Assembly (NCBI GenBank): GCA_902526005.1
Contig: CABZIW010000001.1
Span: forward strand, 3,013-67,012
Direction: 5' to 3'
Length of the DNA: 64,000 bases
Origin: an uncultured Pelagibacteraceae bacterium
GTDB lineage: Bacteria; Pseudomonadota; Alphaproteobacteria; Pelagibacterales; AG-422-B15
The translations under genes and the position numbers were made by a program. Under the pieces are notes generated by a model. That model saw only the letters and a program-made list of their open reading frames with translations, searched no databases and was not told the origin of the DNA. This document shows, one piece after another, positions 26,007 through 63,825 of the stretch (positions are counted from its first letter, which is position 1; every line of letters begins with the position of its first letter).

Positions 26007-27182
26007 TTAATTTAACCACTCTTCTTTGACATTTTCATTTTTTTCAAGCGCAAAATATTTTTTCTTATAAATTTCAATATGATTTCGATCAATCAATTGC
26101 TTTAATGACCAAACAGCCATTGCTCTTACAGTAGAAGATTTATCTTCTAAAAGTGCCTCAATATCTTTCTTGTATTTTTTTTCTTTACTATTTCCAACTG
26201 CGATCAATACATTTCTTAAAAATCTATCTCTACCAATCCTTTTAATGCTCGATTTAGCAAACTTTTTTCTGAAATCTTCGTCTGTTAAACTTAAAAAATC
26301 ACCTAAATCAGGTTTGATAAGATCATCCCTTGGATAAAAACTAATTTCATTAGATTTTTTTGCAAATTTATTCCATGGACAAACTGCTAAACAATCATCA
26401 CAACCATAAATTCTATTTCCAATTAGTTTTCTCAAATTTTTATCTATAATACCTTTATGTTCTATTGTGAGATATGAAATACATTTAGTAGCATCTAATT
26501 TATAAGGCTCAACTATTGCATTAGTTGGGCATATATCAATACAGCTTGAACATGAACCACAATGATCAATCTCTGGGCGAGTATTATTAATTTTTTTATC
26601 AACAAAAATTGAAGCAAGGAATATCCATGACCCAAAGTCTTTTGAAACAAGATTTGTATGTTTGCCTTGCCAACCAATGCCACCTTTCATAGAAATAGGC
26701 TTTTCCATAACAGGTGCTGTATCCACAAAGTATTTAAAACTACAATTAAGCAACTTTGAAATTTCAAATGAAAGACTTTTCAATTTTTTTTTAATTATTT
26801 TATGATAATCAGAATTTCTTGAATAAACAGAAATTATACCCTTATTTTTTTCAGACAATAACTCAAGCGAATTACATTCAAAGTGATAGTTGATTCCAAG
26901 AACAATTATTGACTGAGCTTCATCCCACAAAATATTTGGATTTGATCTACAATTAGATCTTTTCTCCATCCATGCCATTTCACCATGATGATTTTTTTCC
27001 AAGAACTCATCTAGTTCTTTTTTAAAATCCAAGTTCGGGTTTATATCTACAACACCAAAAGTATCAAAACCATGCTGTTCTATTAATTTTTTTAGTTCAT
27101 TACTTTTATCTAGTTGACCTTCTTCAACTGATCTTTGAAGCCTAATGGCTGAGGAAGAATGTTTACTATCTCTTTTGGACAT
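26007..27182 (-). CDS. queG: tRNA epoxyqueuosine(34) reductase QueG (start uncertain)
   Basis: DYH, FVDTAPVMEK, GWQGKHT, CGSCSSCIDICPT, CISYLTIEH, GCDDCLAVCPWN. Confidence 0.95.
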   Translation of the reverse strand: MSKRDSKHSSSAIRLQRSVEEGQLDKSNELKKLIEQHGFDTFGVVDINPNLDFKKELDEFLEKNHHGEMAWMEKRSNCRSNPNILWDEAQSIIVLGINYHFECNSLELLSEKNKGIISVYSRNSDYHKIIKKKLKSLSFEISKLLNCSFKYFVDTAPVMEKPISMKGGIGWQGKHTNLVSKDFGSWIFLASIFVDKKINNTRPEIDHCGSCSSCIDICPTNAIVEPYKLDATKCISYLTIEHKGIIDKNLRKLIGNRIYGCDDCLAVCPWNKFAKKSNEISFYPRDDLIKPDLGDFLSLTDEDFRKKFAKSSIKRIGRDRFLRNVLIAVGNSKEKKYKKDIEALLEDKSSTVRAMAVWSLKQLIDRNHIEIYKKKYFALEKNENVKEEWLN

Positions 27183-48760: not shown

Positions 48761-49648
48761 TTATAAAAGACCGCGCTTTTGATATTGCTGCACAGATGTT
48801 TTACCTACTTTAAAACCTTTTTCCTGAAGTTCCCGAGCAATTGCTCTTTGAGACAATCCTTTAGCACGGAGTGCTTTAGCTGTAGGTAACCATTCTTTTG
48901 CTTTTTCCAAGGCTAGTTCTTGTGCTTTTTCTGTCCCAGTTTTTTCTTCATAAGAATATAATGTTTTCATAACTCTACCATCAGCATACTTTATATATCC
49001 TTTTTTGATAGCTTCATTAACGTTATTGGCGATTGTCAGATTTGAGTCGATAAATGTTTTATTATTTTCATACGTAATTCCTCTAAGCCTATCATTTAAG
49101 TTTTTCACTCTTTCATTTATTAAATTTATATCTTTTTTATCATTTGCATCTAAGCTTCCTTCTTCCTCAATAAAAATCTTACTTATTTCTAAAAATGATT
49201 TTTTATTACAATTTTCAATAAAAAATAAAATTTGATCATTTGTAAATGTTGTTCTGCTTCCTGTTGGTCTTTCAGTTGGATTAAAACTTTGATCTTTGTT
49301 TTTATAATCCTCTTTTAGGTAATCCTGTGATGCAGTATCGGATGGTTTTTTTCCGGCAAGTATGTCTTTAATTATGCTGTCTTCTCTTTCAAGAAACCTG
49401 AGCACATGTCTCACAGTTTGCTCACCAACTATTTTCATCTTTCTTGAAATATCAAGTGCTGAGAGTCCCTCATTTTCTCGAATTTGCCAAATTCTTATAA
49501 GTTGATTTTGGTCTAATTTAGTAGATCCGTATCCTCCTAAACTTAAATATTCTTTATATTTAATTTTAAGTTGTGAATCGCTATATCTAATTTTGTTAAA
49601 TTCATTTGCTCTGCTCCTTGTAGCACTTCCTGCTTTCAAATATTTCAT
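48761..49648 (-). CDS. Hypothetical protein with three putative HTH segments
   Basis: GLSALDISRKMKIVGEQTVRHVL; FTNDQILFFIENCNKKSFLEISKIF; KGLSQRAIARELQEKGFKVGKTSVQQY. Confidence 0.6.
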   Translation of the reverse strand: MKYLKAGSATRSRANEFNKIRYSDSQLKIKYKEYLSLGGYGSTKLDQNQLIRIWQIRENEGLSALDISRKMKIVGEQTVRHVLRFLEREDSIIKDILAGKKPSDTASQDYLKEDYKNKDQSFNPTERPTGSRTTFTNDQILFFIENCNKKSFLEISKIFIEEEGSLDANDKKDINLINERVKNLNDRLRGITYENNKTFIDSNLTIANNVNEAIKKGYIKYADGRVMKTLYSYEEKTGTEKAQELALEKAKEWLPTAKALRAKGLSQRAIARELQEKGFKVGKTSVQQYQKRGLL

Positions 49649-50700
49649 AATTTTTTTATATTATTATCTTCGATTTTAATTTCATTGTCACCTGTAACAG
49701 ATGGGAAAACTTCTATTCGTTTGAGCTTATCCTCAATTTTTTCAGATTTATCGGTCATTTGAATATCTTCAAGTTGAGATACTTTTGGTATTAGCTTTGA
49801 AGTCCAACTACTAACAGCTTTATTATAAGCTCCTGTAGCTGTACTTAATCCACTTCCAACTCTGTTTAAATGTTTAGTAAAGGTATTCAATCTATTATGT
49901 ATTTCATATCCAATTTTGCTAATTTTCTTAGCATTTTGTTCCATATCTTTTTGAACATTAAATAATTTGATCGTTTTAAGCACAGCATAAAGGATTGGTG
50001 GTGTACAAATAATAACACCCATATTTCTAGCTTTTGTATCCAAATCAGGCATCTGAGACAGAGCAAGTAAATATAAATTTATATTATACATATACATTAG
50101 TGTAAACTCTGGACTGCCCTCGAAGTATTGATGATATTTTTTTTTATGCAGGGCTTCGGCATGCTTTAATACATCCTCTGCATGTTGTTTTAAAAAACGA
50201 TGTTTGTCATCTTCACTTTCTACATTTTGTGATTGCGCAAATGAGGCAATACTCACTTTTGAGTCAATTACAATTGTACCCCCACGTGTTGAGTCAAGAT
50301 AGACGTCTGGTTTAACTTTTTGATCAAAACTACCAACAGTATCTTCCCATTTATAATTAACACCTTCAAGCAAGCCCACATCATCTAGCATTTCTCTAAG
50401 ACTTTCTTCACCCAAATCACCTTGTAAACTTTTATTTGTTAGGGCTTCAGTCCATTTATGATAATTTTTTGATAAGTAATCTAGTGAGTTGCTTGTTTTT
50501 TCCTGACCTGATTTCACCGTACTACTTAGACCATCAACCGCACTTTTAACACCTGCGATTTGATTAAGTAAATTATCAAGATCATTATGCTCTGCAGATG
50601 ATTGATGTTTTTTTTCCGAGTGAATATTATTAAATAAATAAGCTACTACTGCGATCGCAAGGAAAGATATTATTAGTGATATTATAGTTATGACTTCCAT
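49645..50700 (-). CDS. rmuC: RmuC family DNA recombination protein (PD-(D/E)XK nuclease)
   Basis: N-terminal TM and coiled coil, QGDLGEESL, KPDV....IVIDSKVS, HAEALHKKKY, ICTPPILYAVL, YNKAVSS. Confidence 0.88.
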   Translation of the reverse strand: MEVITIISLIISFLAIAVVAYLFNNIHSEKKHQSSAEHNDLDNLLNQIAGVKSAVDGLSSTVKSGQEKTSNSLDYLSKNYHKWTEALTNKSLQGDLGEESLREMLDDVGLLEGVNYKWEDTVGSFDQKVKPDVYLDSTRGGTIVIDSKVSIASFAQSQNVESEDDKHRFLKQHAEDVLKHAEALHKKKYHQYFEGSPEFTLMYMYNINLYLLALSQMPDLDTKARNMGVIICTPPILYAVLKTIKLFNVQKDMEQNAKKISKIGYEIHNRLNTFTKHLNRVGSGLSTATGAYNKAVSSWTSKLIPKVSQLEDIQMTDKSEKIEDKLKRIEVFPSVTGDNEIKIEDNNIKKL

Positions 50701-50703
50701 TGA

Positions 50704-52392
50704 TTATATAATTCTATATTTTTCCCAATCATTTTTAAATAATTTTAATTTTTCTGGATGATCTATCATTATTTTAAGCAAAATTGTTAGACCGTCTGAA
50801 AAAGCTCTTTGACCGTCTGCAAGTCCAAAAGCATGCTGTAACTCATGCGTAAGCGTTGACAGGATTGATCCAAAGCTATGAGAAAAAAGTTTTTCATTGA
50901 GTAATACAGTTTTTTCATCAAATTGACTTTGTGAGTCTTTTAATTCGCCTAAAACTTTATCAGACTTTAAAACCTTAAATTGGATATTATACAGTGCTCC
51001 ATATTCGGACTCTACTTGCACAAGATCAACAGCTTCTAAACAATAAAAAACACCGGCAAAACCAGGTGCAACTTCGCGCAGACATTGTAAAAGGAAATTT
51101 ATAGCCTTTGTTTCTTTGGAATTGAGCAATCTAATTGCCTCTTTTTTGGCTTTTTCCTCTGCCTTTTTCTTTTTTTCCTGCAAAATCTCAACGCTTGATT
51201 TAATGCCCAATCTGCTGAAGTAACTTGGTAACTTTTTATACCCCTTCTTCTCAAAGTGTCTGTCTTGACTATATATCTTTGGTTCAAGTTCCCAGTACAA
51301 CCTTCCATAAATGCTGCTGTAACGAGGTGAGCTTTCGGAATAGTAACCTTTGATACGTCCAATAGGTGAAAATAACTTTTCAAGATAATCTTTTGACTCT
51401 TCCGATTTTAAATTCCAGACATTATTACATATACTGCTTAATAGTGGGTGCCCTTGTCCTTTTAACCACAATGGCTTCAATTCTTCCAAAATAAATTTTA
51501 TTGCAGGATTTAATGCACTATCTCTATAGTGCAGTCCAGACTGAGCGACAATATTAAAAAGCTGAGATCTTAAGTCTTGCGTAAACGAATTTCTATCGCG
51601 ATCACTTGCAACTTTGTTTTCAATCTTTTTATATTTTTTTTCAATTACAAGAATGAGAGGTAAGTCAATTTCACCTCTATTTAGTCCATTGTAAAAAATT
51701 ATTCCGTTTTCTTTATTAGATTTATAAAAAGATATATGATTATATGAATGTAGTAATTCACCTAAATGTGGATTTTCTGGCCAGAAAAAATGATCTTCTA
51801 GACCACACTTAAATGCATCGCGTATATTTTCTTTAAATGTGTTAATAACAAACTTTGAACCAGTTTCAGAATTAGAAATTTTAAAAAAATTATAAATTAA
51901 TGGTCTTAATCCAACCTCATTTTCTTCAGGTGAAACAGAGACAGCTACAGCTTCATTCCCTGATATAAATATTGGATATTCAATTCCTAATTTAATTAGA
52001 CTAACTACTGAGATCAGGCTGCCTTCCCCAAATTTTCCAAGTTGGGTTTCATCATTTGCTTTTGTTCCTCCTATATAAAACAGTAACTTCAAGTTGTAAT
52101 CAGAAGGGCCTTGTACAATAATTTGTCCAGATTTAATTGATGTTTTAATATCAGAAATACTAAACCCTTGTGAGATAGCACCATCCCTTGCATTTTGAAG
52201 AACTTCTCTACAAATAAAAGATGGGGAATAATCAACACCCCAATCCAATGAAACGCTGCTCTCAAATGAGTAATCATATTGAACTTTTTTTAAACCTGGG
52301 ACTTTTTTAAGCAATTTAGAAATTTCATTAATTTCATTTTTAGCAATTAGTGCTGTATCTTTTTTTATTGAATTTTTTATTTGTTTTCTCAT
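50704..52392 (-). CDS. GHKL-type ATPase fused to a C-terminal zinc-metallopeptidase motif
   Basis: REVLQNARDG (N-box), QLGKFGEG (G2 box), and HELQHAFGLAD (HExxHxxGxxD) near the C terminus. Confidence 0.75.
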   Translation of the reverse strand: MRKQIKNSIKKDTALIAKNEINEISKLLKKVPGLKKVQYDYSFESSVSLDWGVDYSPSFICREVLQNARDGAISQGFSISDIKTSIKSGQIIVQGPSDYNLKLLFYIGGTKANDETQLGKFGEGSLISVVSLIKLGIEYPIFISGNEAVAVSVSPEENEVGLRPLIYNFFKISNSETGSKFVINTFKENIRDAFKCGLEDHFFWPENPHLGELLHSYNHISFYKSNKENGIIFYNGLNRGEIDLPLILVIEKKYKKIENKVASDRDRNSFTQDLRSQLFNIVAQSGLHYRDSALNPAIKFILEELKPLWLKGQGHPLLSSICNNVWNLKSEESKDYLEKLFSPIGRIKGYYSESSPRYSSIYGRLYWELEPKIYSQDRHFEKKGYKKLPSYFSRLGIKSSVEILQEKKKKAEEKAKKEAIRLLNSKETKAINFLLQCLREVAPGFAGVFYCLEAVDLVQVESEYGALYNIQFKVLKSDKVLGELKDSQSQFDEKTVLLNEKLFSHSFGSILSTLTHELQHAFGLADGQRAFSDGLTILLKIMIDHPEKLKLFKNDWEKYRII

Positions 52393-52419
52393 TATTTTTT
52401 CCTTATTCGATTAAATTTA

Positions 52420-52617
52420 TTAATATGGCGAAATGGAGACCCAAAAGCACTCAGATTCATCGTCCGGCCCTTTAGCTAAGCCTTTGATATCAAATACTCT
52501 CTCATCCTCATAATGAGTAATCTTCAATTCATTCGCATAAACAGCTAATTCTGAATAATCTCTAAACTTATAATCCTCAAGAGGAGCGCAGAGTAATACT
52601 ATAATAGTTTCGATCAT
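52420..52617 (-). CDS. Small hypothetical protein (65 aa)
   Basis: Fills the operon gap, 10 nt after the previous stop; no motif recognised. Confidence 0.55.
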   Translation of the reverse strand: MIETIIVLLCAPLEDYKFRDYSELAVYANELKITHYEDERVFDIKGLAKGPDDESECFWVSISPY

Positions 52618-52627
52618 CTAAATTTTT

Positions 52628-52852
52628 CTAATTAATAAGGTTCTTATTTTCATGAAACCATTTCCAAACCTTATTTTTGGTTTTAAAATATTTGATAGCT
52701 CTATCTAGGCTTTCATTAAGAAAATCTCTAAAATCTTGTTTCTGACCTTCAAGAGCAAGCAACTCACTTAACTCATTAATTTTTTCAATTGTATCCTCAT
52801 TAAGAAGTAATACTTTTTTGATATTAGGATCATTTTCTTTTTTTAATTTCAT
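52628..52852 (-). CDS. Small protein, possible ribbon-helix-helix DNA-binding fold (74 aa)
   Basis: KKVLLLNEDTIEKINELSE...FRDFLNESLDRAI strand-helix-helix pattern; 4-nt overlap with upstream gene. Confidence 0.55.
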   Translation of the reverse strand: MKLKKENDPNIKKVLLLNEDTIEKINELSELLALEGQKQDFRDFLNESLDRAIKYFKTKNKVWKWFHENKNLIN

Positions 52853-54372
52853 CTCATTGCCTCTAACTCTTTTTCTTTATTTTCAATATATGTCCGCGCT
52901 GAAACCAAGAGTTGAAATTTTTCATTTGGAAGATCTGGGTTACTATTCTTATTATTATTTAGATCGTCATTATCAATTTCGTTGGCTTTGCAAATCTTTT
53001 CTAATTCATCTTTGGCAGTTTCAATTGTTAAATAGTTTCTGTATTCATAATTTTCACTTAGCAATCTGTTGGCTATTTGATGTTCTATATCTCTAATATC
53101 TGATTGGGACATGACAGATGGTTCATTATCATAAATTATTTTTTTTGCTATATGTACCATACGCATATCTGTGAAAGCTTTTATTTTTTTATACTTATCT
53201 TTGTACTCATCTAATTGGTGAAATTCACGCGCAAGTGCCTTATCTGAATTAGTAAAAAAACTTTCATAAATCATATCTTCGTAATACTCAGATTTTTTTT
53301 TAGCAAACATTTCATCGTTATCGACAGTGAATGCCGAAACAACCTTATTTTTGTATTGATTATTATTCTCTAAATTCTCATGCATTTTTTGTATTTCTTC
53401 TAAATTACCAAGACTGCCTATTTGTTCTTTGGATAGGTTTGCAACCTTAGGATCGATCAAAATTGGATTTTTGTTTAAATAAATTTTTCTAAATATTCTA
53501 TTTTTTCGATCATCTTTTCTTTTAGATATTTCTGCAGGGGATAATAAAAAATCATCCTCTGTAAAATTTTTCAGATCAACAAATATAGCAGAACCGTCAT
53601 TACCCATCCCGCAGTAGGAATATGTATACAAATATTCATTTCCTCTCATGAAAAAAGTCGACAAAAAATAATTTTTTGAATTACTCAGTAAATCAGAAAC
53701 TCTCTCTTTATGTGCAGTCTGTTGCATTTGTTTCCATATTTCTGGATCTTGTTTTGAGTATTTTTTGACAAAATTCATCATTAGTTTTGTATCAACAATT
53801 GCTGTATGCAATTCACCTTCAGCTTTAATAGAATTTTCATCACAAATAAGGCCAAGTTGAAAACTAGGTTTGCCAGTATTTGGATGTAAAGGAACTTTTA
53901 AATCACTTTTACCAAAACTTTGTAAGGCATGCGCAAAGCTTAGTGCATCGATTTCGTAATTAAAGTTACCGGACGGAGATTTGGTATTCATGAAGTATAA
54001 ATCATCGAGCTGAAGGTTCATATAGGCATTGGCAACTCTAAATATGCCTCTGTCAAAGTTGTTGTTCCATGCTATCCAGTAAATATTGTATTTTTGCCGC
54101 CACTCACTAAATTTTTTATTAATCACTCTACTTAACTCATAGCTTGACATATTTTGTCGTAAATTTTCTTCTGTTAAATTATTTGTGAAACTTGCTCCTG
54201 GGCTTAAAAAATTTGTCTTATTTAAACGACATTTTTCATCGAGGACGTCTTCAATTTCAAAGTTTTCTGGATCAACGAGGATTGCAGTTATTTCCAACAG
54301 CTGTGTAAAGCCTGTATTTGGAATATTGTGTGAACTTTCCGTATCAAAAAAACAATATCTAATATTTGTCAT
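52849..54372 (-). CDS. sbcB: Exodeoxyribonuclease I-like DEDDh 3'-5' exonuclease
   Basis: ExoI FFDTES, ExoII WNNNFDR, GKPSFQLGLIC..N, ExoIII HTAIVD; long ExoI-like C-terminal extension. Confidence 0.75.
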   Translation of the reverse strand: MTNIRYCFFDTESSHNIPNTGFTQLLEITAILVDPENFEIEDVLDEKCRLNKTNFLSPGASFTNNLTEENLRQNMSSYELSRVINKKFSEWRQKYNIYWIAWNNNFDRGIFRVANAYMNLQLDDLYFMNTKSPSGNFNYEIDALSFAHALQSFGKSDLKVPLHPNTGKPSFQLGLICDENSIKAEGELHTAIVDTKLMMNFVKKYSKQDPEIWKQMQQTAHKERVSDLLSNSKNYFLSTFFMRGNEYLYTYSYCGMGNDGSAIFVDLKNFTEDDFLLSPAEISKRKDDRKNRIFRKIYLNKNPILIDPKVANLSKEQIGSLGNLEEIQKMHENLENNNQYKNKVVSAFTVDNDEMFAKKKSEYYEDMIYESFFTNSDKALAREFHQLDEYKDKYKKIKAFTDMRMVHIAKKIIYDNEPSVMSQSDIRDIEHQIANRLLSENYEYRNYLTIETAKDELEKICKANEIDNDDLNNNKNSNPDLPNEKFQLLVSARTYIENKEKELEAMR

Positions 54373-54375
54373 AAT

Positions 54376-54762
54376 TTAATATAAAAATTTCTTTGTTTTT
54401 TTATTTAATTCATTTTTTTTAGTAAAGGGCCTTAAGTATCTTTGCTTAAGGAAACGATCTAATCTTTCATTTCTTATTTTTGATAATTCGTTTGAGTAAT
54501 TTTTCCAATGAAATGTAAAGGCATTTTCATATAATATTTCATGAGCAGTTTTTAATTTGTAAGACAATAATTCAACTCGTTCTCTGGTTTCTTTATAGAT
54601 TTTTAATTTTTTATTAAAAATTTTTTTTTGTCTCCAATACATAAATAATTTATTTCTTATGTCACTATCTAGAGCCAGGCAAGAAAGGAAAGAAAAAAAT
54701 GTAAGAACAAACCTAGCTCTAGAAGCAATCGACGCCGAAACTTTTTTTACAATATGTATCAT
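54376..54762 (-). CDS. Basic hypothetical protein (128 aa)
   Basis: 4-nt overlap with XRE gene and 3-nt gap to the exonuclease; no motif recognised. Confidence 0.6.
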   Translation of the reverse strand: MIHIVKKVSASIASRARFVLTFFSFLSCLALDSDIRNKLFMYWRQKKIFNKKLKIYKETRERVELLSYKLKTAHEILYENAFTFHWKNYSNELSKIRNERLDRFLKQRYLRPFTKKNELNKKTKKFLY

Positions 54763-55406
54763 ATATCCTCATCTCTTAACCATGTATTTTGATATTCAAT
54801 TTCATCACTAATTTTAACAACATTATTGGATGAGATTATTTCAGTATTTTTAATGAAACGATTTCTACTTTGCAAAATGACAATAACCTGGTTGATATGA
54901 TTTCCCTTTTTTAAAAAGTAGTTGATGTTTTCATAATTTAACTGTCTAACAATTTCCTTAAGATTTACTTCGTACTCTGTTTTTTTATTCTCAAGTATTT
55001 GATATTCGTTATGGTCAAAATCATAAATAGATTTTTTTTCCCACATTTTTTCAATCTCTATTAAAGCCTGACTTAGTTTAAAAAGATTTTCTTTAAAACT
55101 AACCGTAACCACAGTTTTTAGATATTCACTAGCTTCATGCCAAGTATCATCATATTCGATGTAAGGAATTTTTGATTTCAGGACAGCACAAAGACTTCTT
55201 ATGTCTTGGTAGGCCTGATTTGTATCTCGTAACGACTCCATTCTTGACTCGAGAATAATTCGTTTATCATTTGGTATTGGATGCTCCCCTCTTTCATAAG
55301 CCTCATATGTTCTAAGTGGCAAATCTAATTTTAGAGACATGTCGCGTTGCGTTATTTTTAATTCCCTTGTTCTTAAAATCTTTAACTTTTCAGAAAAATC
55401 ATTCAT
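54759..55406 (-). CDS. XRE-family HTH transcriptional regulator (start reassigned to MNDFSEKLK)
   Basis: KLKILRTRELKITQRDMSLKLDLPLRTYEAYERGE; the track's TTG at 55415 overlaps the -10 box. Confidence 0.85.
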   Translation of the reverse strand: MNDFSEKLKILRTRELKITQRDMSLKLDLPLRTYEAYERGEHPIPNDKRIILESRMESLRDTNQAYQDIRSLCAVLKSKIPYIEYDDTWHEASEYLKTVVTVSFKENLFKLSQALIEIEKMWEKKSIYDFDHNEYQILENKKTEYEVNLKEIVRQLNYENINYFLKKGNHINQVIVILQSRNRFIKNTEIISSNNVVKISDEIEYQNTWLRDEDI

Positions 55407-55413
55407 GCTAGGC

Positions 55414-55442
55414 AATTTATCGAAATTCTAGCGACATGTCAA
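55414..55442 (-). promoter_or_regulatory. Sigma70 promoter of the XRE-led operon, with palindromic operator candidate
   Basis: TTGACA (55442-55437), 17 bp, TAAATT (55419-55414); GACATGTC palindrome overlaps the -35 box. Confidence 0.65.
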
Positions 55443-55447
55443 CATAT

Positions 55448-55469
55448 AATCCGCAATAAATCCGCAATA
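55448..55469. repeat. Tandem 11-bp direct repeat AATCCGCAATA x2
   Basis: 55448-55458 and 55459-55469 are identical. Confidence 0.8.
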
Positions 55470-55506: not shown

Positions 55507-55674
55507 TTAGCTTTGGATAATTGATTTATATTTTAAAATCTGAGGTTCTTTTTTAGATTCTAAAATATTTATTAATCGTTCTTCTTCATTAATAATCACC
55601 CGAAAAAATTTTTTTTGACCCACATGATCTTCTACCTGCTCAATCCGTATGGATATGAGATTATTATTTTTCAA
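55507..55674 (-). CDS. Small hypothetical protein (55 aa), absent from ORF track
   Basis: AAGGAGGT SD 5 nt before TTG; MKNNNLISIRIEQVEDHVGQKKFFRVIINEEERLINILESKKEPQILKYKSIIQS*. Confidence 0.6.
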   Translation of the reverse strand: MKNNNLISIRIEQVEDHVGQKKFFRVIINEEERLINILESKKEPQILKYKSIIQS

Positions 55675-55736
55675 TTTTTACCTCCTTTTTTTAAATTCAA
55701 CATTAAATAAAACGAGTCTCTTAAGCTTTTCAATCA

Positions 55737-56405
55737 TCATATTTCACTGAGATCAAAAAGATTGTGCCTGCATTTTCTTTGAGCTTCATTAAAATATTTC
55801 CTAAATTCTTTTATATTCCAATTGTTATGCATTATATCAAAGTATATAGAAGGATCCTTGCCGTATTGTGTTTTTTGTAACTCAATTTCAAAGCTATCCT
55901 TGTCTCCTAAAAATGCGATGACTTCTTCAGCAGTAAGTAAGTTTTCAAACATGAACTGTGTAAAATAATATCCGTCTTGAATTCGAGTTCCTATAATACC
56001 AACTTTAGATAAGTACTCATCACCTGGAACATATTTTACTAAAACTTCAAATATATCATCACTCTGTGGAATTGACTCCATAATACTTGTAATTTGAAAT
56101 GTGAGACCCACCTCATCGCAATTATCACTATCCAGCATGAAGGTAAGGTAATCTTCTTTTTGAATTTGTCCTTTTGTAGCAATAAATATTATTGGTGCAG
56201 TTTCTGATTTATGAATATACCAAATACTGTTGACAGATTCATTATTTGAGGAATTCTCAATGCTATAATCTTCGGCCAATAATTGTTTTTGAAACACTAT
56301 GACTAAATTTAATAATATTAAAAAAATAAGTAATTTTTTAATTTTTAAAAAATTTATCGTATTTTTTTTATACTTACTTTGTATAAATTTTTTTAGTTGA
56401 ATCAT
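55737..56405 (-). CDS. Exported or membrane-anchored hypothetical protein (222 aa)
   Basis: AAGGAG SD; basic N-region then hydrophobic stretch LLIFLILLNLVIVF. Confidence 0.7.
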   Translation of the reverse strand: MIQLKKFIQSKYKKNTINFLKIKKLLIFLILLNLVIVFQKQLLAEDYSIENSSNNESVNSIWYIHKSETAPIIFIATKGQIQKEDYLTFMLDSDNCDEVGLTFQITSIMESIPQSDDIFEVLVKYVPGDEYLSKVGIIGTRIQDGYYFTQFMFENLLTAEEVIAFLGDKDSFEIELQKTQYGKDPSIYFDIMHNNWNIKEFRKYFNEAQRKCRHNLFDLSEI

Positions 56406-56480: not shown

Positions 56481-57425
56481 CTAGAACAAATCATCAAGCG
56501 TGATTGTGCTTGGTCGAGCGTGACTCATATCTACTGAGTATTCTATATTGTGAATACCTTCTTTTGCTTCAGTAATTCTTGGAACGTCTACATTTTCATA
56601 TATTAGAAGGCTTTTTTGAGCTGTTTGATAATCAAACTTCGTTTTAGTTATGTCAGTTTTTTCAGTTATCATATCTACTATTGTATCCAACTTAAAAATT
56701 AGATAGTTATCATCAACCTTTTCTCTAATTTTATTAATTAACTCCTCTAAGGAACATCCATCACTTACTTTTTTTGCAATGATTGAAACAATAAATATTT
56801 TATCGGACTTACTGTGAAGTTGTTGATACTTAAATCTATGGATCCTACTATTATTTTTTGATGATTTGATTTCAACAGCCTTATCTAATGAGTAAAAGTC
56901 CCAAATATCTCTTGCTTTTTCTGATTGATAAGAAGTAAGCGCTTCCAACGTATTTGAAGTATTATCTATAACGAACAGTTCACTCCATAATCCTTGTAAT
57001 CCCTTAGTGTTATTTTTCTTTTCAATAAAGATACTTTTTAGTGTAAATAGATATTTAGAAAGTGTCTTATTTGAAGTTATACTTTCTAAATCATCAATAA
57101 TTTGATTGACTATTTTTAAAAATGCACTTTGCTCATTAACGTTGTCACTAAAAAATTCTAAGACAGTATACTGATCTTTGGTTATTTGATTATTTTTTTC
57201 TATTGTTTCGTAGGTATTAGTATCATTGACTCGCCATAACTCTAGTAAATTTATTCTTTCACTAATTACATTATTATCATTAACCTTGAATAGGATTACC
57301 GGCTTGTTTGTCAACGATTTTGCAATATAATGTTCTTTTTTTATTTGAATTTTTTCTACTATATACTTACCGTCTTTCTCACTTTTTGATGGTTCAATAT
57401 TGTAAAACAAATCAATTAAATTCAT
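56481..57425 (-). CDS. PD-(D/E)XK motif protein, DUF4420 family
   Basis: GLQGLWSELF, WDFYSLDKAVEIKSS; directly after the Z1 gene with a 4-nt overlap. Confidence 0.85.
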   Translation of the reverse strand: MNLIDLFYNIEPSKSEKDGKYIVEKIQIKKEHYIAKSLTNKPVILFKVNDNNVISERINLLELWRVNDTNTYETIEKNNQITKDQYTVLEFFSDNVNEQSAFLKIVNQIIDDLESITSNKTLSKYLFTLKSIFIEKKNNTKGLQGLWSELFVIDNTSNTLEALTSYQSEKARDIWDFYSLDKAVEIKSSKNNSRIHRFKYQQLHSKSDKIFIVSIIAKKVSDGCSLEELINKIREKVDDNYLIFKLDTIVDMITEKTDITKTKFDYQTAQKSLLIYENVDVPRITEAKEGIHNIEYSVDMSHARPSTITLDDLF

Positions 57426-60004
57426 CTTTCGATTTGCCAGCTATCTGAAATTTTTTCTGATGGTAAGAATCTAAAAACTGGATAATTTTCATGTAATAAT
57501 TTTTTATTCTTTTCCCCATAATCATCTACGGTTTCTAAATTTACTCTTTTTAGTTTCATGCACTGCAATACTGGATGAACTTTTAATATATTTGATCTTG
57601 GTAAATTTTTAAGTCTATCATCTTTTAGATATTCATAATGAAATTTACTATAACTTGGTCGGCTATCTGTCACACCACTTCCTCCTCCTCCAGAGTCAAA
57701 ACTGATACTCCCAAATGCTCCCTTAATTGTTCTTTCTTTAGTAGTTTCAGGATCTATCATAACAATAGGGCAATTAATATCTTCATTTTCTTCAAGATAT
57801 TCCTCAATTGTTTTAAAAAGTGGAAATACTTCAAGATCATCAAAAAGTTCTTTTATGTATTCTTCAAATACAAAACTCAACTTTAAATCAACTTTGATTT
57901 TGGATAAATTATTATGAATCCACTTTTCATTTCTTCCTGGCTCTAGATCTCTAAACAAATAACTACTTTGATTAAATTTATCTAAGATATCATTATATAT
58001 TTCATTATTTTTTTGCTCTTGAACTATATCTTTTTGCCACTGATTATTCTGTCTTGCAGCTGAACCTTTTGGTATCATGATTAGGCTTCTTCTTGATTTA
58101 GAGCTTGATGTTAATCTTGAACGCGAACGAAAAGCCCTTGGCCAGTCTCTAATTAATTTTCCATCATTAAGATGATTTGAAATATCTTTTCTAAACTGCT
58201 TTTCAAGTTTTGCATTCTTTTCAAAATCATCTATGAGGGACTCATGTAAATATATTTTAGTAAAAGGCAGTGTATCTTTTCTATATCCAAAAAATCTTGC
58301 TCTTTGTTGTTGCGTATCTACTTGGTTTGCTGCTTTTCTAGGCATATATGAGACACTCAAACCCTCAATTGTATAACCTCTATCTAAGCCGTCTCCACCA
58401 ATTAGAATTCTTGACATCGTTCCCTCTTTTTCCCATGGAATATCGGGTATTCTTCCCTGAGATGCATTAAATAAAATTATATTTCTTTTGATTTCGTTTA
58501 AAGCCCTAGTTATATACGTTCGAAATTCTTTATTGAATTCAGGGATATTTTCAATATCTTTTTGTTCAACCAACTCATCATACGTAACCTTAAAGTCATC
58601 TATATCATTATTTAAATGGGGAACTGGTCTGTTGGTGTTTTCAGAATTGAATGAGTGGTGCCAATTATTTATTTGGTTTGTAATATCTCTTCTATAATTT
58701 TCATGCTGATCTCTTTCTCTATGAGTATGTATCATCATTGAAAGTTTGTAATTTTCTAAGTGCTTTTTTTGATGATAGCAAATAGCATTAGTAAGCACAA
58801 AGTATCTTAATGCATGATTTAGTGAGTAATCTTCTAATTCATCTTTATTATCAATTTCATCATTTTCAATTGTATCGTTTTGTTCTTCGGTATCATTAAT
58901 AATTTTTTGATTTATTAATTTATCTATGTTTGTTATGTAGCGAGCTTTATTTTTATCATTAAGAAAAAAAAATCCTGAACCAGTGTAATCTTGTCCTGGT
59001 TTGAGTATCTCACCAAACTCAGGATTTAAATTTTCAATTGCTTGTTGCAATAAATTTGCATAAGGAGTAGCTGTATATCCAATATAAGAATGAAATGGAA
59101 TTGCTTCTCGCAAACTTTCAATGCATCTGTTTGTTGTAGATCTAACCTCCTCCAGTAAAATGATTTCGCCATGCTCGGGTGACCACTTGACTAATGGAGA
59201 TTTTGCGTTCCATAAATATAGTTGATCTATATCAATTTCATTGTTTAAAGCAATTTCATCGAGATTGTCTCCCTCTTGAAATTGATAATAATGGATCCTA
59301 AAAGATCGTGGTGCTCTTCCCTGCTCTATATTTCGTTTAATATTAGATTTTTGATTTCGTATCGCGTCTGAAGAATTAAGTGAGTAATGATCTGACTCAT
59401 CATCTATGATTAATACTGGACATTCATTAAGATTATGACTATTAGCTAATTCTCTAAACAAATCAGTGATCATCTCAATTCTATTGTGTAGTTTGAATGA
59501 AGTTATAACTATGGTCTTTCTTTCTTCTTCGTCATAACTTTTTGTCCATGTCTCAAGCGCTGATTGACAATTATTAATTGTAGTTTCATCAATGGACTCC
59601 TTGTCATCATTTCTTATTTTTTCCCAACCCCATGATAATTCTAAATCATCAAACCTAAATGCTGTTTGTCGAGCTAAACTTCCAACATTTCCTGACAAAA
59701 TTACTATAATTTTGAAATTATTATCATGTGCTAAATGAGTTAGCGCTGTCATGGAGGTAGTTTTTCCCGATTGAACATCTCCTATGACTAATCCAGTTGA
59801 CCTATTATTTGATTGTTCTTCATAATTTTTAAAAGGGTCGATGCATTGCGATAAAATGCTAGATGTAGATTTTATGGTATTATTTGTGTCCTCTTCATAT
59901 TTCTTAGGATCTTCAGAAAATTTTTTTTTCAATTTATTGAAGTAAACTCCATCAGTAAAAGGTTTCCATAAATTTCTGTTAAGAGGTCTTATAATTGTGC
60001 TCAT
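57422..60004 (-). CDS. Z1-domain protein with SF2-helicase-like ATPase and a LysM-like insertion
   Basis: GDVQSGKT, LIIDDESD, GYTATP, MMIHT, GG..LDRGYTIEGL.VSY, DTQQQRARFFGYR; LysM-like segment at aa 238-285. Confidence 0.9.
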   Translation of the reverse strand: MSTIIRPLNRNLWKPFTDGVYFNKLKKKFSEDPKKYEEDTNNTIKSTSSILSQCIDPFKNYEEQSNNRSTGLVIGDVQSGKTTSMTALTHLAHDNNFKIIVILSGNVGSLARQTAFRFDDLELSWGWEKIRNDDKESIDETTINNCQSALETWTKSYDEEERKTIVITSFKLHNRIEMITDLFRELANSHNLNECPVLIIDDESDHYSLNSSDAIRNQKSNIKRNIEQGRAPRSFRIHYYQFQEGDNLDEIALNNEIDIDQLYLWNAKSPLVKWSPEHGEIILLEEVRSTTNRCIESLREAIPFHSYIGYTATPYANLLQQAIENLNPEFGEILKPGQDYTGSGFFFLNDKNKARYITNIDKLINQKIINDTEEQNDTIENDEIDNKDELEDYSLNHALRYFVLTNAICYHQKKHLENYKLSMMIHTHRERDQHENYRRDITNQINNWHHSFNSENTNRPVPHLNNDIDDFKVTYDELVEQKDIENIPEFNKEFRTYITRALNEIKRNIILFNASQGRIPDIPWEKEGTMSRILIGGDGLDRGYTIEGLSVSYMPRKAANQVDTQQQRARFFGYRKDTLPFTKIYLHESLIDDFEKNAKLEKQFRKDISNHLNDGKLIRDWPRAFRSRSRLTSSSKSRRSLIMIPKGSAARQNNQWQKDIVQEQKNNEIYNDILDKFNQSSYLFRDLEPGRNEKWIHNNLSKIKVDLKLSFVFEEYIKELFDDLEVFPLFKTIEEYLEENEDINCPIVMIDPETTKERTIKGAFGSISFDSGGGGSGVTDSRPSYSKFHYEYLKDDRLKNLPRSNILKVHPVLQCMKLKRVNLETVDDYGEKNKKLLHENYPVFRFLPSEKISDSWQIER

Positions 60005-60098
60005 GATTTCTAGTTAAATATTAAATGGTATTATTCAAGTTTTTTGTTGTTCATTATACAACGTAGAACTAACTATATGAAAAGTATAATTTTTATTT

Positions 60099-61724
60099 TT
60101 ATTTAAAGTTAAGTTCTGGAGGTAATATTCTGAGAATATCATTAAGTTTTTCTCTCACACGAGCAGGTTTTTCACTTCTTGAACCGGTGCGCATTGTTTG
60201 TACTTCTGCAATAGATAGCCATGTACATAATTGGCTTAAAAGTTCTTGCCCTGTATCTCCTGAGGGCAATATATATGCCCTAGTAAATTTGTGATTCAAA
60301 CTAATATCAATAATGATATCATATGATTTTAAATATCTATCATTTGGATATGATACAGAGTACCAGAAGTCATTAACTGGCTCTGTATTTATAAAGTTAA
60401 CAGTAATCTTAAATTGTACTTTATCTTTTCCAGCGCCTTGAACAAATGATCTTGAGAATTTTTTTTCTATATTTTCATGGATTTTTTTCTCTACTAACTT
60501 TGGATAACTCGATTTTAGCATTTCTTTACTTGCTGCTTCAACCGCAGCCTTAAGAGTGTTTTTTGATTTTTCTAGAGGCGCATCATCTGTAGAATCATCA
60601 TCCTCAAGTTCAATATGAGGTTTTAAATTTCTTGTACTTTCTTGCCAACTTTTACATTGTTTAAAAAGATTAAATTCATCTTTGCTTATTTCTTCTTTTA
60701 TTAAACTTTCAAATTTTTCTTTTGTTCCATCCCACTGTAAGTCATCTTTTGTATGTGTTGCTTCTATATTAGAGATAAATAATTCTCCCACCATTGTTTG
60801 CTCTACTCTACCTCCTTCTTCACCCGTAAATTTTGAGCGATATCTGAACTCTTTTTCAGGTGATCCACCCAGAATTAGCCTATCTCTTCTAAATATTGCT
60901 ATACCGTCATTCTTTTTTCTCCCAGTCAAACCAGTTTCTTCATCTAGTCGACCAATCCAACCATAAACTGACATTTCATTTTTTTTATTGAACTCAAGAT
61001 CAATTTTTTTCTTCCATACAACACTTTTAGGTTTTTTTAAAATTTCACCCTCAAGATACTTATCCCATTGATCAACTGGTGGTGCCATAGATAATTTTGG
61101 ATTTTCATATTTTAAAATTTCTCCATTATATTTAAGCTGTAATTCATTTCTTCTTATAAAAACTCTATACATAGATGCTAAAAACTTTTTAAGTGTATTA
61201 ATGTCAGCTGGTGTTATATTCCTACATTTTGTTAAATTAACTATTGTGAATCCCCTATTTTTTGGAGATGAAGATAATTTGTCTATATTGATATCATCGA
61301 TACTTTTTTCAATTTTATTTGCATCAAAGACCATTTTTCTTACTGCGGTCTCACCTAAAGCAGTTGTGGTTACATCCCAGTAATCTGAGAGCCATATACC
61401 TGCTGTTTTCATTCCCATTCCAAACTGTGAAAGACCTGTTCCCTTCTTGGGTTTTTGACCTGCTGTTAAAGCCCTTTCAAGATCTGATGAGTGAATACCT
61501 GCAGCATTATCTCTTATATTAATATTTTTCCCTTGTATATTAATCTCAATTTTAAGCTTATAACTACTATAACTTGAATTTAATTTTTTTTTATTATCTA
61601 TATAACTTTGAACTGCATTATCAACAAACTCTGCTATTGCATAAGGGACCTTGTAAGGTAAGTTTTTAAAAGTCAGTAAAACATTTGAATAAGGCCTAAT
61701 GTTTATTTTTTCTAATTCTCGCAT
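60099..61724 (-). CDS. MORC/MutL-like GHKL ATPase
   Basis: AIAEFVDNAVQS, IRDNAAGI, SQFGMGMKTA, GFTIVNL. Confidence 0.9.
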   Translation of the reverse strand: MRELEKINIRPYSNVLLTFKNLPYKVPYAIAEFVDNAVQSYIDNKKKLNSSYSSYKLKIEINIQGKNINIRDNAAGIHSSDLERALTAGQKPKKGTGLSQFGMGMKTAGIWLSDYWDVTTTALGETAVRKMVFDANKIEKSIDDINIDKLSSSPKNRGFTIVNLTKCRNITPADINTLKKFLASMYRVFIRRNELQLKYNGEILKYENPKLSMAPPVDQWDKYLEGEILKKPKSVVWKKKIDLEFNKKNEMSVYGWIGRLDEETGLTGRKKNDGIAIFRRDRLILGGSPEKEFRYRSKFTGEEGGRVEQTMVGELFISNIEATHTKDDLQWDGTKEKFESLIKEEISKDEFNLFKQCKSWQESTRNLKPHIELEDDDSTDDAPLEKSKNTLKAAVEAASKEMLKSSYPKLVEKKIHENIEKKFSRSFVQGAGKDKVQFKITVNFINTEPVNDFWYSVSYPNDRYLKSYDIIIDISLNHKFTRAYILPSGDTGQELLSQLCTWLSIAEVQTMRTGSRSEKPARVREKLNDILRILPPELNFK

Positions 61725-61729
61725 AGATT

Positions 61730-63085
61730 TTATATTAAATTTTTTGCAATTAAATGCACAACTTTAACATTTACGGCATTTCCAACTGCTGGTAAAAAGT
61801 AAGACTTATATTTTTCTTTAAAACGCAGATCAGACAAGGCAAATCCTTGAAGTCTCAAAGCTTCTTCGAATGTTATAAATCTATATTTTTTCTCTAACTT
61901 TGAACTTCCGTTGCCTATAATCGGCGTTTGTGTAGTAGTCATTGAAATTAATGTTGGCGCGACGTTTGATCTTTTTACTCTTATACCAGATGGTCTAAAA
62001 GATATTAGCTTATTTTTAAGATTTAAGTTTTCTCCATGAGCATTCCATTCAAATTTTTGGTAACTCGGCATCATCGCGTCAACTTTGTAATCTTTTATCC
62101 AATTCTTAAAATCTCTTCTGTATTTCTTTAAATATTCTCTATTTCTATTTATGAAATTTATTTTCCAGCTGGGAAATTTTTTCTTTGTTTTGGCATATGC
62201 TGGAAGGTTAATAAGTTCTCCGTTTTTCATTTTAATTCTTTTGCCAAAACTGCCTTTATAGCCAATAAAATTTTTTAAATTTTTATTAAATGTATTTGTT
62301 CCATTTATTGGATAATTTGCATCAAATTCCATCAACCATAATGGCGACATAAATTCGTTACTAATAATTTTTCTTCCATATTTTTTTTCTAAACGATTTA
62401 AAAGATCCTGAAACATTTCTATCTTTTCAGCTTTTGCTTTAAAAACATATTCAACATTTTTAGGATTCTTGCTTAAAAACTTTCCTATATTTTTATGATT
62501 ATAATCTTTTTTTAAGTTTATCTTTCTGAGTGGAAATTCAAAAGAGTCATGCTTTTTATTTTTTTTCTTATTAATCCCTACAATATATAACCGCTGTCTT
62601 GTTTGAGGATAGCAAAAATCAATAGGGGCAAGTTGTTTTTCTTTTATGGTATATCCAATTTGCTCAAGGTTCATTTTCATTTTTCTATATGTTTTTTTTG
62701 AATTATGAAAAAATAAATTTGGGACATTCTCAAGAAAAATATACTCAGGTCTCACATATTTGATAATTGAAAATAAGTATTGAAACATATCTCCAGCTAT
62801 TTTGTGATCAAATCCATTTTGAGAACCGGCTTTGGAGAATGGCTGGCATGGAAAACCTGCGCAAATCAAATCTGCATTTTTTTTCATAAAATCTAAATGT
62901 ATTTTAGGGATTGTTCTAATGTCATTCCATATGTATTCTTTTTTGAGCTTAAAATTTTTCTTATAGAGATCTCTCAGTCGTTCATCAATTTCACAAGCAT
63001 AAATACAATCATGCCCCTCTTTTCTCAATGCTATATGAAATCCTCCAAGACCAGCAAATAGATCTATGAATTTAAGTTTTTTCAT
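61730..63085 (-). CDS. DNA (cytosine-5)-methyltransferase
   Basis: DLFAGLGG, AGFPCQPFS, ENV, Q.RQR, RLQGF, GNAV. Confidence 0.96.
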   Translation of the reverse strand: MKKLKFIDLFAGLGGFHIALRKEGHDCIYACEIDERLRDLYKKNFKLKKEYIWNDIRTIPKIHLDFMKKNADLICAGFPCQPFSKAGSQNGFDHKIAGDMFQYLFSIIKYVRPEYIFLENVPNLFFHNSKKTYRKMKMNLEQIGYTIKEKQLAPIDFCYPQTRQRLYIVGINKKKNKKHDSFEFPLRKINLKKDYNHKNIGKFLSKNPKNVEYVFKAKAEKIEMFQDLLNRLEKKYGRKIISNEFMSPLWLMEFDANYPINGTNTFNKNLKNFIGYKGSFGKRIKMKNGELINLPAYAKTKKKFPSWKINFINRNREYLKKYRRDFKNWIKDYKVDAMMPSYQKFEWNAHGENLNLKNKLISFRPSGIRVKRSNVAPTLISMTTTQTPIIGNGSSKLEKKYRFITFEEALRLQGFALSDLRFKEKYKSYFLPAVGNAVNVKVVHLIAKNLI

Positions 63086-63145: not shown

Positions 63146-63427
63146 TCAATCGTTAATTTTTTTTTCTAAGCATCTAAAGTCTTTTTCCAATCTGTTTCCA
63201 TCAAAATTGATGTGGCAAATATTCAACTGATGCCTTTGGCACCAAATTTGAAGACCTCTATCGGTGAAGCCTACATCAATTCTTGAATAATCCTGTAGAG
63301 ATTTTGCATCTGTCTGACCGCTGATAAATTCATCAGAACATTTAACACAAACAATTGGCTCTTTGATTTGATTTAACAAATAACTAAGTTTTTCTATATC
63401 TTTCTCTAGATAATTGTCTTCACTCAT
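63146..63427 (-). CDS. Hypothetical protein with CxxC...CxxH (93 aa)
   Basis: CVKC and WCQRH motifs; 4-nt overlap with the nuclease gene. Confidence 0.75.
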   Translation of the reverse strand: MSEDNYLEKDIEKLSYLLNQIKEPIVCVKCSDEFISGQTDAKSLQDYSRIDVGFTDRGLQIWCQRHQLNICHINFDGNRLEKDFRCLEKKIND

Positions 63428-63825
63428 TCACACCAGTCTTTCTTATTATTTTTATCATACACAACTCCTAAACCGTTTAAGACCATTATTTTTGAAACGT
63501 TTTCACCATCTACAATGATATAAGCTAAGATTCTATCAAAAAAATCTCTATTGTATTCAGTTTCAAATTCAATTTTTTTCCCGTCAGAAATATATTTATT
63601 AATATAGTTACGTGCTTCAATGCCAAGCGTATATTCTTTTTCACATTTAGGATGTGAAATTTCAGGTGTATCAAGATCGAGTAGTCTAACTTTATCATTA
63701 TTTTCTTGATATGTTACATAGCATGTATCGCCATCATAACAAAACAAGTCATTTTGTTTTCTTATTTGTATGTCTGCAAATGAATTAGAGATTAATAAAA
63801 TTAGAACAGAGAAAATTCTTATCAT
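63424..63825 (-). CDS. Thermonuclease (SNase-like) with signal peptide
   Basis: YDGDT, VRLLDLDTPE, RDFFDRILAY. Confidence 0.9.
   Translation of the reverse strand: MIRIFSVLILLISNSFADIQIRKQNDLFCYDGDTCYVTYQENNDKVRLLDLDTPEISHPKCEKEYTLGIEARNYINKYISDGKKIEFETEYNRDFFDRILAYIIVDGENVSKIMVLNGLGVVYDKNNKKDWCE

Follow-up and report, generated by a model that had tools for sequence, protein, structure and literature searches.

A stretch of 64,000 nucleotides (nt) from an uncultured Pelagibacteraceae bacterium (contig CABZIW010000001.1, positions 3,013 to 67,012; hereafter the window) contains an operon of eight genes, g1 to g8, including genes for an RmuC-family nuclease (g7), an exonuclease I (ExoI, g3) and a protein that joins a GHKL fold to a C-terminal HExxH motif (g6). 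Comparison with related loci showed that these three genes are the conserved core of the operon. The reading that we tentatively prefer is that the operon is the window lineage's form of a chromosomally fixed, vertically inherited module of SAR11 (Pelagibacterales) that degrades DNA ends and DNA breaks. A preliminary description of the same DNA had treated the eight genes as a unit; this had to be given up, as g1, g2, g4, g5 and g8 are limited to the window's own sub-lineage.

Conserved core of the module in SAR11

Relatives of g6 were collected in two ways: a word-indexed search recovered 18 clusters only, and an exhaustive profile search recovered 1,316 representatives (E ≤ 1e-3), of which some 45 are full-length. 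The gene neighbourhoods of 11 genomic matches and 80 metagenomic loci were then compared, a locus being counted as well-flanked when at least 4.5 kb was available on each side. All 11 genomic matches were Pelagibacteraceae, as was every assigned locus. GHKL, RmuC, ExoI and trx genes were found together in 17/17 well-flanked loci, and RmuC lay no more than 4 kb downstream in 34 of the 39 loci with at least 2.5 kb of downstream sequence. The search for co-occurrence that the preliminary description had called for was thus carried out, and the homologues do occur together. In 11 Pelagibacteraceae genomes the module occupies the same chromosomal site, between hisS-hisZ-hisG (the far flank being hisD, hisS, hisZ, hisG) and trx-folC-accD-trpA.

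The typical SAR11 gene order is small open reading frame (ORF), GHKL, ARPP-1, RmuC, small ORF, ExoI, (long helicase-nuclease), C9, trx. ARPP-1 (match 2e-59) was present in 14 of the 17 well-flanked loci and the long helicase-nuclease gene in nine. The latter encodes a TM0106-type RecB-like nuclease of 1,120 amino acids (aa), in which an RNase_H_2 domain is combined with an IGHMBP2-type superfamily 1 helicase (AAA_11/12; TIGR03491, 208 bits). A small WGR protein (match 5e-11) was encoded at many loci and a Cas4-like nuclease at some. The conserved unit therefore consists of GHKL-HExxH, RmuC and ExoI, usually with ARPP-1, often with WGR, and with the RecB-like nuclease-helicase in about half of the well-flanked loci. 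ARPP-1, WGR, helicase-nuclease and Cas4-like genes were found nowhere in the 64-kb window. WGR domains are linked to DNA breaks through the PARP enzymes. ARPP has been linked to the 3′-end-binding HIRAN domain, restriction endonucleases and helicases, and, on the model of SRAP, a sugar-crosslinking activity has been proposed for it (PMC9503650). By analogy, WGR and ARPP-1 suggest that DNA ends or breaks are recognised. All the partners that could be identified in the comparison act on such ends or breaks or recognise them.

The window belongs to a sub-lineage that also includes the sister loci L002, L017 and L104 (GHKL identity 54-65%). Here the order is XRE, ExoI, small ORF, GHKL, RmuC, followed in L002 by a small ORF, a helix-turn-helix (HTH) protein gene and trx. 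Accessory genes are modular and vary between close lineages.

Tight packing of unrelated genes in a streamlined genome could give a similar picture by chance. SAR11 intergenic spacers are very short everywhere (PMC5069961), and lineages differ in where ExoI lies with respect to GHKL and RmuC. However, the trio stays together through rearrangements, inversions and turnover of accessory genes, in lineages whose housekeeping proteins are only 25-45% identical, and we therefore regard a chance neighbourhood as very improbable.

Identity of the two nucleases

The g7 protein matched the Pfam RmuC family (PF02646) with an E value of 5.9e-58 (196.7 bits against a cut-off of 26), over positions 11-289 of the 291 in the model. 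Its N-terminal segment is hydrophobic (Kyte-Doolittle 2.7), and a hydrophobic N-terminus was found in 39/39 homologues. The PD-(D/E)XK residues P131-D132...D146-x-K148 are kept in 34 to 39 of 39 sequences. These matches confirmed g7 as a predicted RmuC nuclease with a membrane anchor.

The g3 protein is more divergent. Searched singly, the window protein gave no Pfam match and no PDB match, and g3 is therefore a divergent member of its family. A profile built from the g3 family (A4, 12 members) aligned with Escherichia coli ExoI (1FXX) over residues 10-476 of 482 with an E value of 4.4e-46. The DEDDh residues D10, E12, D107, H189 and D194, which form the D-x-E, D and H-x4-D motifs, are invariant or at least 95% conserved. 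Profile and motifs together confirmed g3 as a predicted exonuclease I. The labels of membrane-anchored PD-(D/E)XK nuclease and single-stranded DNA 3′-5′ exonuclease, given to g7 and g3 in the preliminary description, were both correct. Neither SAR11 ExoI nor RmuC reaches the NCBIfam equivalog score (RmuC, 74 bits against a cut-off of 810).

Among PADLOC models, g3 matched RTasSbcB (E 1.7e-40). The PADLOC names RTasSbcB and RTasRmuC suggested a reverse-transcriptase system; this was rejected, as the operon and the neighbouring proteins contain no reverse-transcriptase domain. In the available text of the paper from which these PADLOC models derive, RmuC is linked only to the UG2 variant and SbcB to UG17 genetics.

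A membrane-anchored nuclease paired with an exonuclease for single-stranded DNA might also serve to degrade imported DNA as a source of nucleotides or phosphorus, an idea that otherwise draws on general knowledge of nutrient limitation in SAR11. However, no uptake or competence gene, transporter, nucleotidase or phosphatase was found in or beside the module at any locus, and the catalytic domain of RmuC is preceded by one N-terminal anchor, an arrangement shared with cytoplasmic RmuC proteins. Scavenging is accordingly given a very small probability.

The GHKL-HExxH protein

The most conserved component of the module is g6. An AlphaFold (AF2) model of the protein (predicted local distance difference test, pLDDT, 81.7) contains a Bergerat fold and a following middle domain. 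In Foldseek searches with this model the top neighbours were the N and M domains of TRAP1/HtpG (E 5e-7 to 1e-4), followed by MORC, topoisomerase ATPase domains and MutL. The modelled structure thus confirmed a predicted GHKL fold, closest to Hsp90/TRAP1. An alignment of 38 diverse relatives showed R62, D/E63, N67, D70, K111, the G2 box GxxGEG (119-124), DRDR (264-267), E517 and D533 to be invariant. Both the N-box (acidic-x3-N-x2-D; D/E63, N67, D70) and the G2 box (G119-x2-G122-E-G124) are therefore present as in the GHKL superfamily.

In the C-terminal domain, the HExxH motif is nearly invariant (H516 in 37/38 relatives, E517 in 38/38 and H520 in 37/38), and D526 (37/38) and D533 (38/38) are candidates for the third metal ligand. 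When this domain was modelled alone (pLDDT 80), its nearest folds were zinc peptidases: 3c37 (E 0.02), Ste24, abylysin (TM score 0.57) and CapP, none of them at a significant E value. A PDB sequence search with g6 and with its C-terminal domain gave nothing significant, the best match being a metzincin at E 0.33.

Pfam, PADLOC and NCBIfam gave no assignment for g6, and no PADLOC model covers g6 or any of its relatives. In longer members of the family, the added domains are TPR repeats and one weak EAD11 match only. As judged from these profile scans, the GHKL-HExxH family lacks annotation.

Operon organization and promoter

The eight co-oriented minus-strand ORFs extend from 55415 to 48761, with junctions from g1 to g8 of -4, +3, -4, +10, +27, +3 and -4 nt (Table 1); all positions and spacings agree exactly with the preliminary description. 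The operon has a GC content of 29-33%, AT-rich like the remainder of the window. An Rfam scan of the operon gave zero families at the gathering score, and no tRNA was found in it.

Table 1. Positions of the operon genes and of the sequence features at its head
Feature	Position	Strand	Size and remarks
g1, XRE-type HTH protein	54759..55415	-	218 aa from TTG 55415; 215 aa from likely real start ATG 55406
g2, hypothetical	54376..54762	-	128 aa
g3, exonuclease I (SbcB-like), predicted 3′-5′ single-stranded DNA DEDDh exonuclease	52849..54372	-	507 aa, full three-domain length
g4, conserved small protein	52628..52852	-	74 aa
g5, ORF	52420..52617	-	65 aa
g6, predicted GHKL fold (Hsp90/sacsin-like N-terminal and middle domains), C-terminal HExxH zincin-like domain	50704..52392	-	562 aa
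g7, RmuC-family PD-(D/E)XK nuclease, predicted N-terminal membrane anchor	49645..50700	-	351 aa
g8, weak-HTH protein at the operon tail	48761..49648	-	295 aa
Sigma-70-like promoter, TTGACA-17-TAAATT	55414..55442	-	hexamer match; geometry recurs in a sister lineage
Perfect 11-nt tandem direct repeat	55448..55469	-	TATTGCGGATT x2 on the coding strand; AATCCGCAATA x2 on the plus strand

A strong promoter had been proposed ahead of g1. The two hexamers are present, but promoter-like matches of this kind numbered 45, with 44.8 expected from shuffles, and are thus not enriched. The same layout recurs in the sister lineage L017 (positions 70-107), where TTGACA-17-TATTTT is followed by an ATG 6 nt later; for this reason the promoter was accepted, the count statistics by themselves being at chance level. 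The annotated TTG start of g1 overlaps the -10 hexamer, and ATG 55406 falls 7 nt past it, so that the true start of g1 is probably this ATG and its mRNA leaderless. The 11-nt tandem repeat lies 5 nt upstream of the -35 hexamer. Its copies (repeat family D1) are 100% identical at a spacing of 11 and are the only two exact copies in the window. The repeat is a possible operator.

The XRE label given to g1 is only partly borne out. Its match to HTH_3 is sub-threshold (E 3.9e-4, 20.8 bits against a gathering cut-off of 23), but its positional counterpart in L017 has a clear HTH_3 match (1.3e-11). Pairwise comparison of g1 with the L017 head gene detected no similarity, and hence no homology of these two XRE-type head genes. 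The "triple HTH" label of g8 has likewise been reduced to weak matches, to HTH_12, HTH_38 and the IS21 N-terminal HTH; a homologue of g8 is found at the same position in L002 (E 3e-14).

The remaining small genes differ in standing. No profile in the scans matched g4, a candidate RHH protein in the preliminary description, and its homologue in L104 is 69% identical (E 4e-31), the ExoI proteins of the two loci being 52% identical; on this conservation g4 is taken to be a real gene. The g2 ORF had no family match in the profile scans and is absent from the sister lineages L002 and L017, and its 4-nt overlap is the sole argument for its being a gene. No matches were found for g5, which is absent in L104, where the GHKL gene directly follows the g4 homologue. 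Both g5 and g2 are doubtful or lineage-specific.

The arrangement at the head of the operon bears on a switch of the ImmR/ImmA or CapH/CapP kind, in which g6, as an ATP-gated protease, would cleave the XRE repressor or an inhibitor upon phage attack, and so induce or unleash the membrane nucleases. Both the window and a sister lineage have an XRE-type gene in first position, behind a conserved leaderless promoter, a tandem repeat lies beside the -35 hexamer, HExxH is conserved in the g6 family, and CapP is among the weak fold neighbours of its C-terminal domain. Yet the vast majority of SAR11 loci with GHKL, RmuC and ExoI have no XRE gene, and no similarity was detected between the g1 proteins of the two lineages. 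Moreover, none of 38 g6-family members gave a match to Peptidase_M78/ImmA, and g6 lacks the G1 ATP-binding box. Such a switch is therefore improbable.

Inheritance

Pairwise identities of GHKL and ExoI were compared with those of the neighbouring folC, and gave a Mantel r of 0.72 (p 0.001); for RmuC against folC the Mantel r was 0.36. Mean identities were 65% for GHKL, 46% for ExoI, 39% for RmuC and 46% for folC. Searches of IMG/VR viral contigs, GenBank phages and PLSDB plasmids found no copies of the module. The co-divergence of GHKL and ExoI with folC, the higher conservation of GHKL than of folC, and the lack of viral, phage or plasmid copies in these collections together indicate, at the level of sequence comparison, vertical descent of the module under purifying selection, or at least co-inheritance with its flanks. 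RmuC is the fastest-evolving part of the module, for which an arms race, relaxed constraint and local replacement are candidate causes.

Two alternative histories were rejected. A sporadic mobile defence island does not fit the occupation of one chromosomal site in highly diverged Pelagibacteraceae and the co-divergence with folC, and a mobile-element origin of the window copy was set aside because IMG/VR, GenBank phages and PLSDB gave no matches.

Surroundings of the operon and the GHKL-HExxH family elsewhere

In the window, the operon is followed downstream by trx, and then by folC, accD and trpA on the other strand. Upstream, at 56481-63085 on the minus strand, four genes encode a C-5 cytosine methylase (451 aa), an HATPase_c_3 protein (541 aa), a Z1-domain ATPase (860 aa) and a DUF4420 PD-(D/E)XK protein (314 aa). 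From its domain content this group looks like a Dcm-linked restriction-type system. It adjoins the operon in the window only.

Between this restriction-like module and the operon (55507-56405, minus strand) lie an ORF of 222 aa with a hydrophobic N-terminal segment and an ORF of 55 aa, neither of which had a family match or was found in related loci. Beyond the module there is a staphylococcal-nuclease homologue of 133 aa (63424-63825). A 93-aa ORF of the window (u93, region 63146-63825) and its Dcm gene were also found on TARA contigs (L001, 10664-10882; L003, 1-695), at identities of 84% and 73%. Their neighbours there are quite different and include genes for CHAT proteases, trypsin and BRCT as well as a GHKL-HExxH operon that is paralogous. 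This difference in surroundings suggests that the DNA upstream of the nuclease module is a variable island. The largest ORF of the window, of 1,506 aa, is located elsewhere (27110-31630, minus strand).

The paralogue on contigs with window-like Dcm and u93 genes is 38% identical to g6, and its operon consists of a sigma-70 region 4 HTH gene (183 aa), a gene of 208 aa, GHKL and DUF4116 (751 aa), beside CHAT proteins of 980-1300 aa. Contexts of this second type (L001, L003-L005, L018-L024, L068-L069) contain no RmuC and no ExoI. Other orders of the second type are 111 aa, GHKL, 226 aa, 76 aa, and GHKL followed by genes of 260, 96, 98 and 139 aa. The second-type contexts may represent separate conflict systems that have GHKL-HExxH as a common building block.

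Outside SAR11, the neighbours of GHKL-HExxH genes include GmrSD, UvrD, HATPase_c_3, ERCC4-HhH, PcfJ, PAPS reductase, Mom and methylase genes. RmuC and ExoI were found in 0/5 sampled non-SAR11 loci, whose settings resemble defence islands or mobile elements. In two unrelated loci an ERCC4-HhH nuclease gene is found close to the family member (immediately downstream of it in L102), and family members are also adjacent to GmrSD_N, in two cases, and to a UvrD helicase; the positions concerned are L099 4188-4832, L102 12561-13238, L093 2046-6004 and L097 6557-7159. These contexts therefore suggest that GHKL-HExxH is a portable component of conflict-type loci, of which SAR11 has fixed one copy beside the nucleases.

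Comparison with known systems

No PADLOC system has the composition of the operon, in agreement with the preliminary description, which knew of no named system of this kind but had overlooked Shield II. In Shield II the metallopeptidase-like protein ShdB binds the membrane RmuC nuclease ShdA, lowers the ShdA level and may release ShdA from the membrane (PMC10270631; Macdonald et al. 2023). As in Shield II and III, g7 is an N-terminally membrane-anchored RmuC nuclease encoded beside a gene of predicted metallopeptidase character. The core feature of Shield, a transmembrane helix with an RmuC domain, is found in g7, but since housekeeping RmuC has the same feature it does not discriminate. Compared by domain description, ShdB is M15-like, small and encoded downstream, whereas g6 carries its HExxH zincin-like domain on a GHKL module and is encoded upstream. 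The accessory genes shdB-E lie downstream of shdA, whereas the gene downstream of g7 encodes an HTH protein. The SAR11 module further adds ExoI, in most SAR11 ARPP-1 and often a RecB-like helicase-nuclease. Finally, Shield has so far been described only in Pseudomonas, where it occurs sporadically and in defence islands, whereas the SAR11 module is inherited vertically at a fixed hisG-trx site.

GHKL proteins that regulate nucleases provide a second parallel. In VcSduA, a type I-D Shedu protein, a GHKL domain controls the nuclease (PMC12137116), and MORC/MutL homologues in restriction-modification systems are attributed to Iyer, Abhiman and Aravind (2008) in the passages of PMC12137116 that cite that work. 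These systems share with the module a Bergerat domain with a clamp-like middle domain, coupled to PD-(D/E)XK nucleases. They differ in that the GHKL domains of VcSduA, MORC and MutL keep motifs I-IV and are fused to a nuclease or paired with a helicase, whereas g6 has a sacsin-like G1 region, is fused to HExxH and is encoded separately from the nucleases. ImmR/ImmA and CapH/CapP also combine an XRE-type HTH gene and an HExxH protein in one operon, and CapP is a weak structural neighbour. In contrast, g6 is not an M78/ImmA protein, its HExxH domain is appended to a GHKL module of 420 residues, and XRE is missing from most loci.

Housekeeping RmuC and SbcB of Proteobacteria belong to the same families as g7 and g3 and have the same catalytic motifs and, in RmuC, the membrane anchor. 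To our knowledge, the rmuC and ExoI genes of E. coli are linked neither to each other nor to a GHKL-HExxH gene. The module resembles RecBCD and AddAB, which act as hubs of both repair and innate immunity, in that helicase-nuclease and exonuclease activities on DNA ends are predicted for it and in being chromosomal and vertically inherited. It differs in that there is no architectural homology and no known Chi-type regulation, and in that the window version lacks the helicase-nuclease. In the literature searched there was no system in which RmuC is combined with a GHKL protein or with ExoI, and no statement that SAR11 lacks RecBCD or AddAB.

Hypervariable region HVR3 of the SAR11 strain HTCC1062 contains mostly genes of unknown function, among them a "possible exonuclease" (SAR11_1165) and a "recB-like" gene (SAR11_1169), and is flanked by ordL, osmC and bhmT (PMC2217521). 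Its equation with the module was not confirmed, as these flanks differ from the hisG/trx flanks found here. An RmuC nuclease with a protease-like or GHKL regulator is already a known theme; the component family is unannotated, and the vertical SAR11 setting is unusual.

Possible function of the module

If the operon is indeed one form of a module that degrades DNA ends and breaks, RmuC would cut DNA at the membrane, and ExoI, together with the helicase-nuclease where present, would digest the resulting 3′ ends. The GHKL-HExxH protein would be the regulator, a dimerising clamp, by analogy with ShdB of Shield II and with VcSduA. The zincin domain of this clamp might either trim or release RmuC, as has been proposed for the action of ShdB on ShdA, or remove protein that blocks DNA ends. 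In the window's sub-lineage, the leaderless gene for an XRE-type repressor at the head of the operon and the HTH protein at its tail would add transcriptional control. Because its position is fixed and its conservation strong, the module may have a constitutive, RecBCD-like dual role, in which linear foreign DNA would be degraded and the cell's own breaks processed. We counted in favour of this reading the Dcm-HATPase-Z1-DUF4420 module immediately upstream, and the location of non-SAR11 relatives of g6 beside GmrSD, UvrD and ERCC4 nucleases.

A more far-reaching proposal is that SAR11 inherits an undescribed DNA-end surveillance machine, in which a sacsin/Hsp90-like GHKL-zincin clamp would control RmuC, ExoI and often a RecB-like helicase-nuclease, with WGR and ARPP-1 proteins as sensors. 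Such a machine would be a hub of both immunity and repair, and GHKL-HExxH would found a new family of conflict components. We consider this proposal unlikely.

Several observations weigh against a DNA-end degrading module under GHKL-HExxH control. The G1 box (DxGxG, motif II, with the adenine-binding Asp) is absent from g6, the position reading A-P-x-E-F in 38 sequences, and since this adenine-binding box is missing the predicted ATP dependence of g6 is doubtful. We take the G1 region to be like that of sacsin; NCBIfam gave weak matches to a sacsin ATP-binding-like model (0.021 and 0.002). Support for a zincin fold of the C-terminal domain is non-significant, with no Foldseek neighbour at E ≤ 0.001 and a best E of 0.02. 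Of the GHKL ATPase-protease fusion named in the preliminary description, the GHKL fold and the near-invariant HExxH motif thus stand, but the ATP-binding box and a significant peptidase fold do not. ShdB and g6 are not homologous, as judged by domain description. GHKL-HExxH also occurs without RmuC or ExoI, in the SAR11 CHAT/DUF4116 contexts and in 5/5 non-SAR11 loci, and is therefore not a dedicated RmuC partner. Finally, a fixed site, vertical inheritance and high conservation, together with the lack of copies in the viral, phage and plasmid collections searched, are atypical for defence and fit housekeeping repair equally well.

The module could accordingly be a pure housekeeping part of the SAR11 recombination and repair toolkit, acting on breaks, abasic sites and DNA-protein crosslinks and having no role against foreign DNA; the HExxH domain would then resemble a DNA-dependent protease of the SprT/Wss1 type, and ARPP would resemble SRAP. 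RmuC and ExoI are housekeeping enzymes of the classic kind. The module has a fixed place between housekeeping operons and diverges in step with folC, GHKL being better conserved than folC. The family is abundant in marine metagenomes (229 g6 matches, with 180 members in one 90% cluster), minimal zincins such as abylysin are among the top fold neighbours of the HExxH domain, and the sugar-crosslinking activity proposed for ARPP extends the analogy with SRAP. However, non-SAR11 members and SAR11 paralogues lie in conflict-type contexts (CHAT, GmrSD, Mom, methylases), RmuC evolves fast (39% mean identity) and correlates weakly with folC, accessory content is modular and variable between close lineages, and a restriction-like module lies next door in the window. 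On balance we regard a purely housekeeping role as possible, if rather unlikely.

Significance

SAR11 bacteria are among the most abundant in the ocean and are heavily preyed on by pelagiphages, and we know of few recognised defence systems in them. Their genomes are extremely streamlined, and a nuclease module that they retain at one site, and that surpasses a folate enzyme in conservation, probably has an important role. The module could explain how SAR11 handles foreign or broken DNA, and the surveillance machine, if real, would be a functional counterpart of RecBCD. GHKL-HExxH is a large unannotated family, with more than 1,300 representative clusters, which also occurs in defence-island-like or mobile-element-like contexts of unrelated bacteria. 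Its role, once worked out, would extend two themes: protease-type control of RmuC, as in Shield, and GHKL control of nucleases, as in Shedu and MORC.

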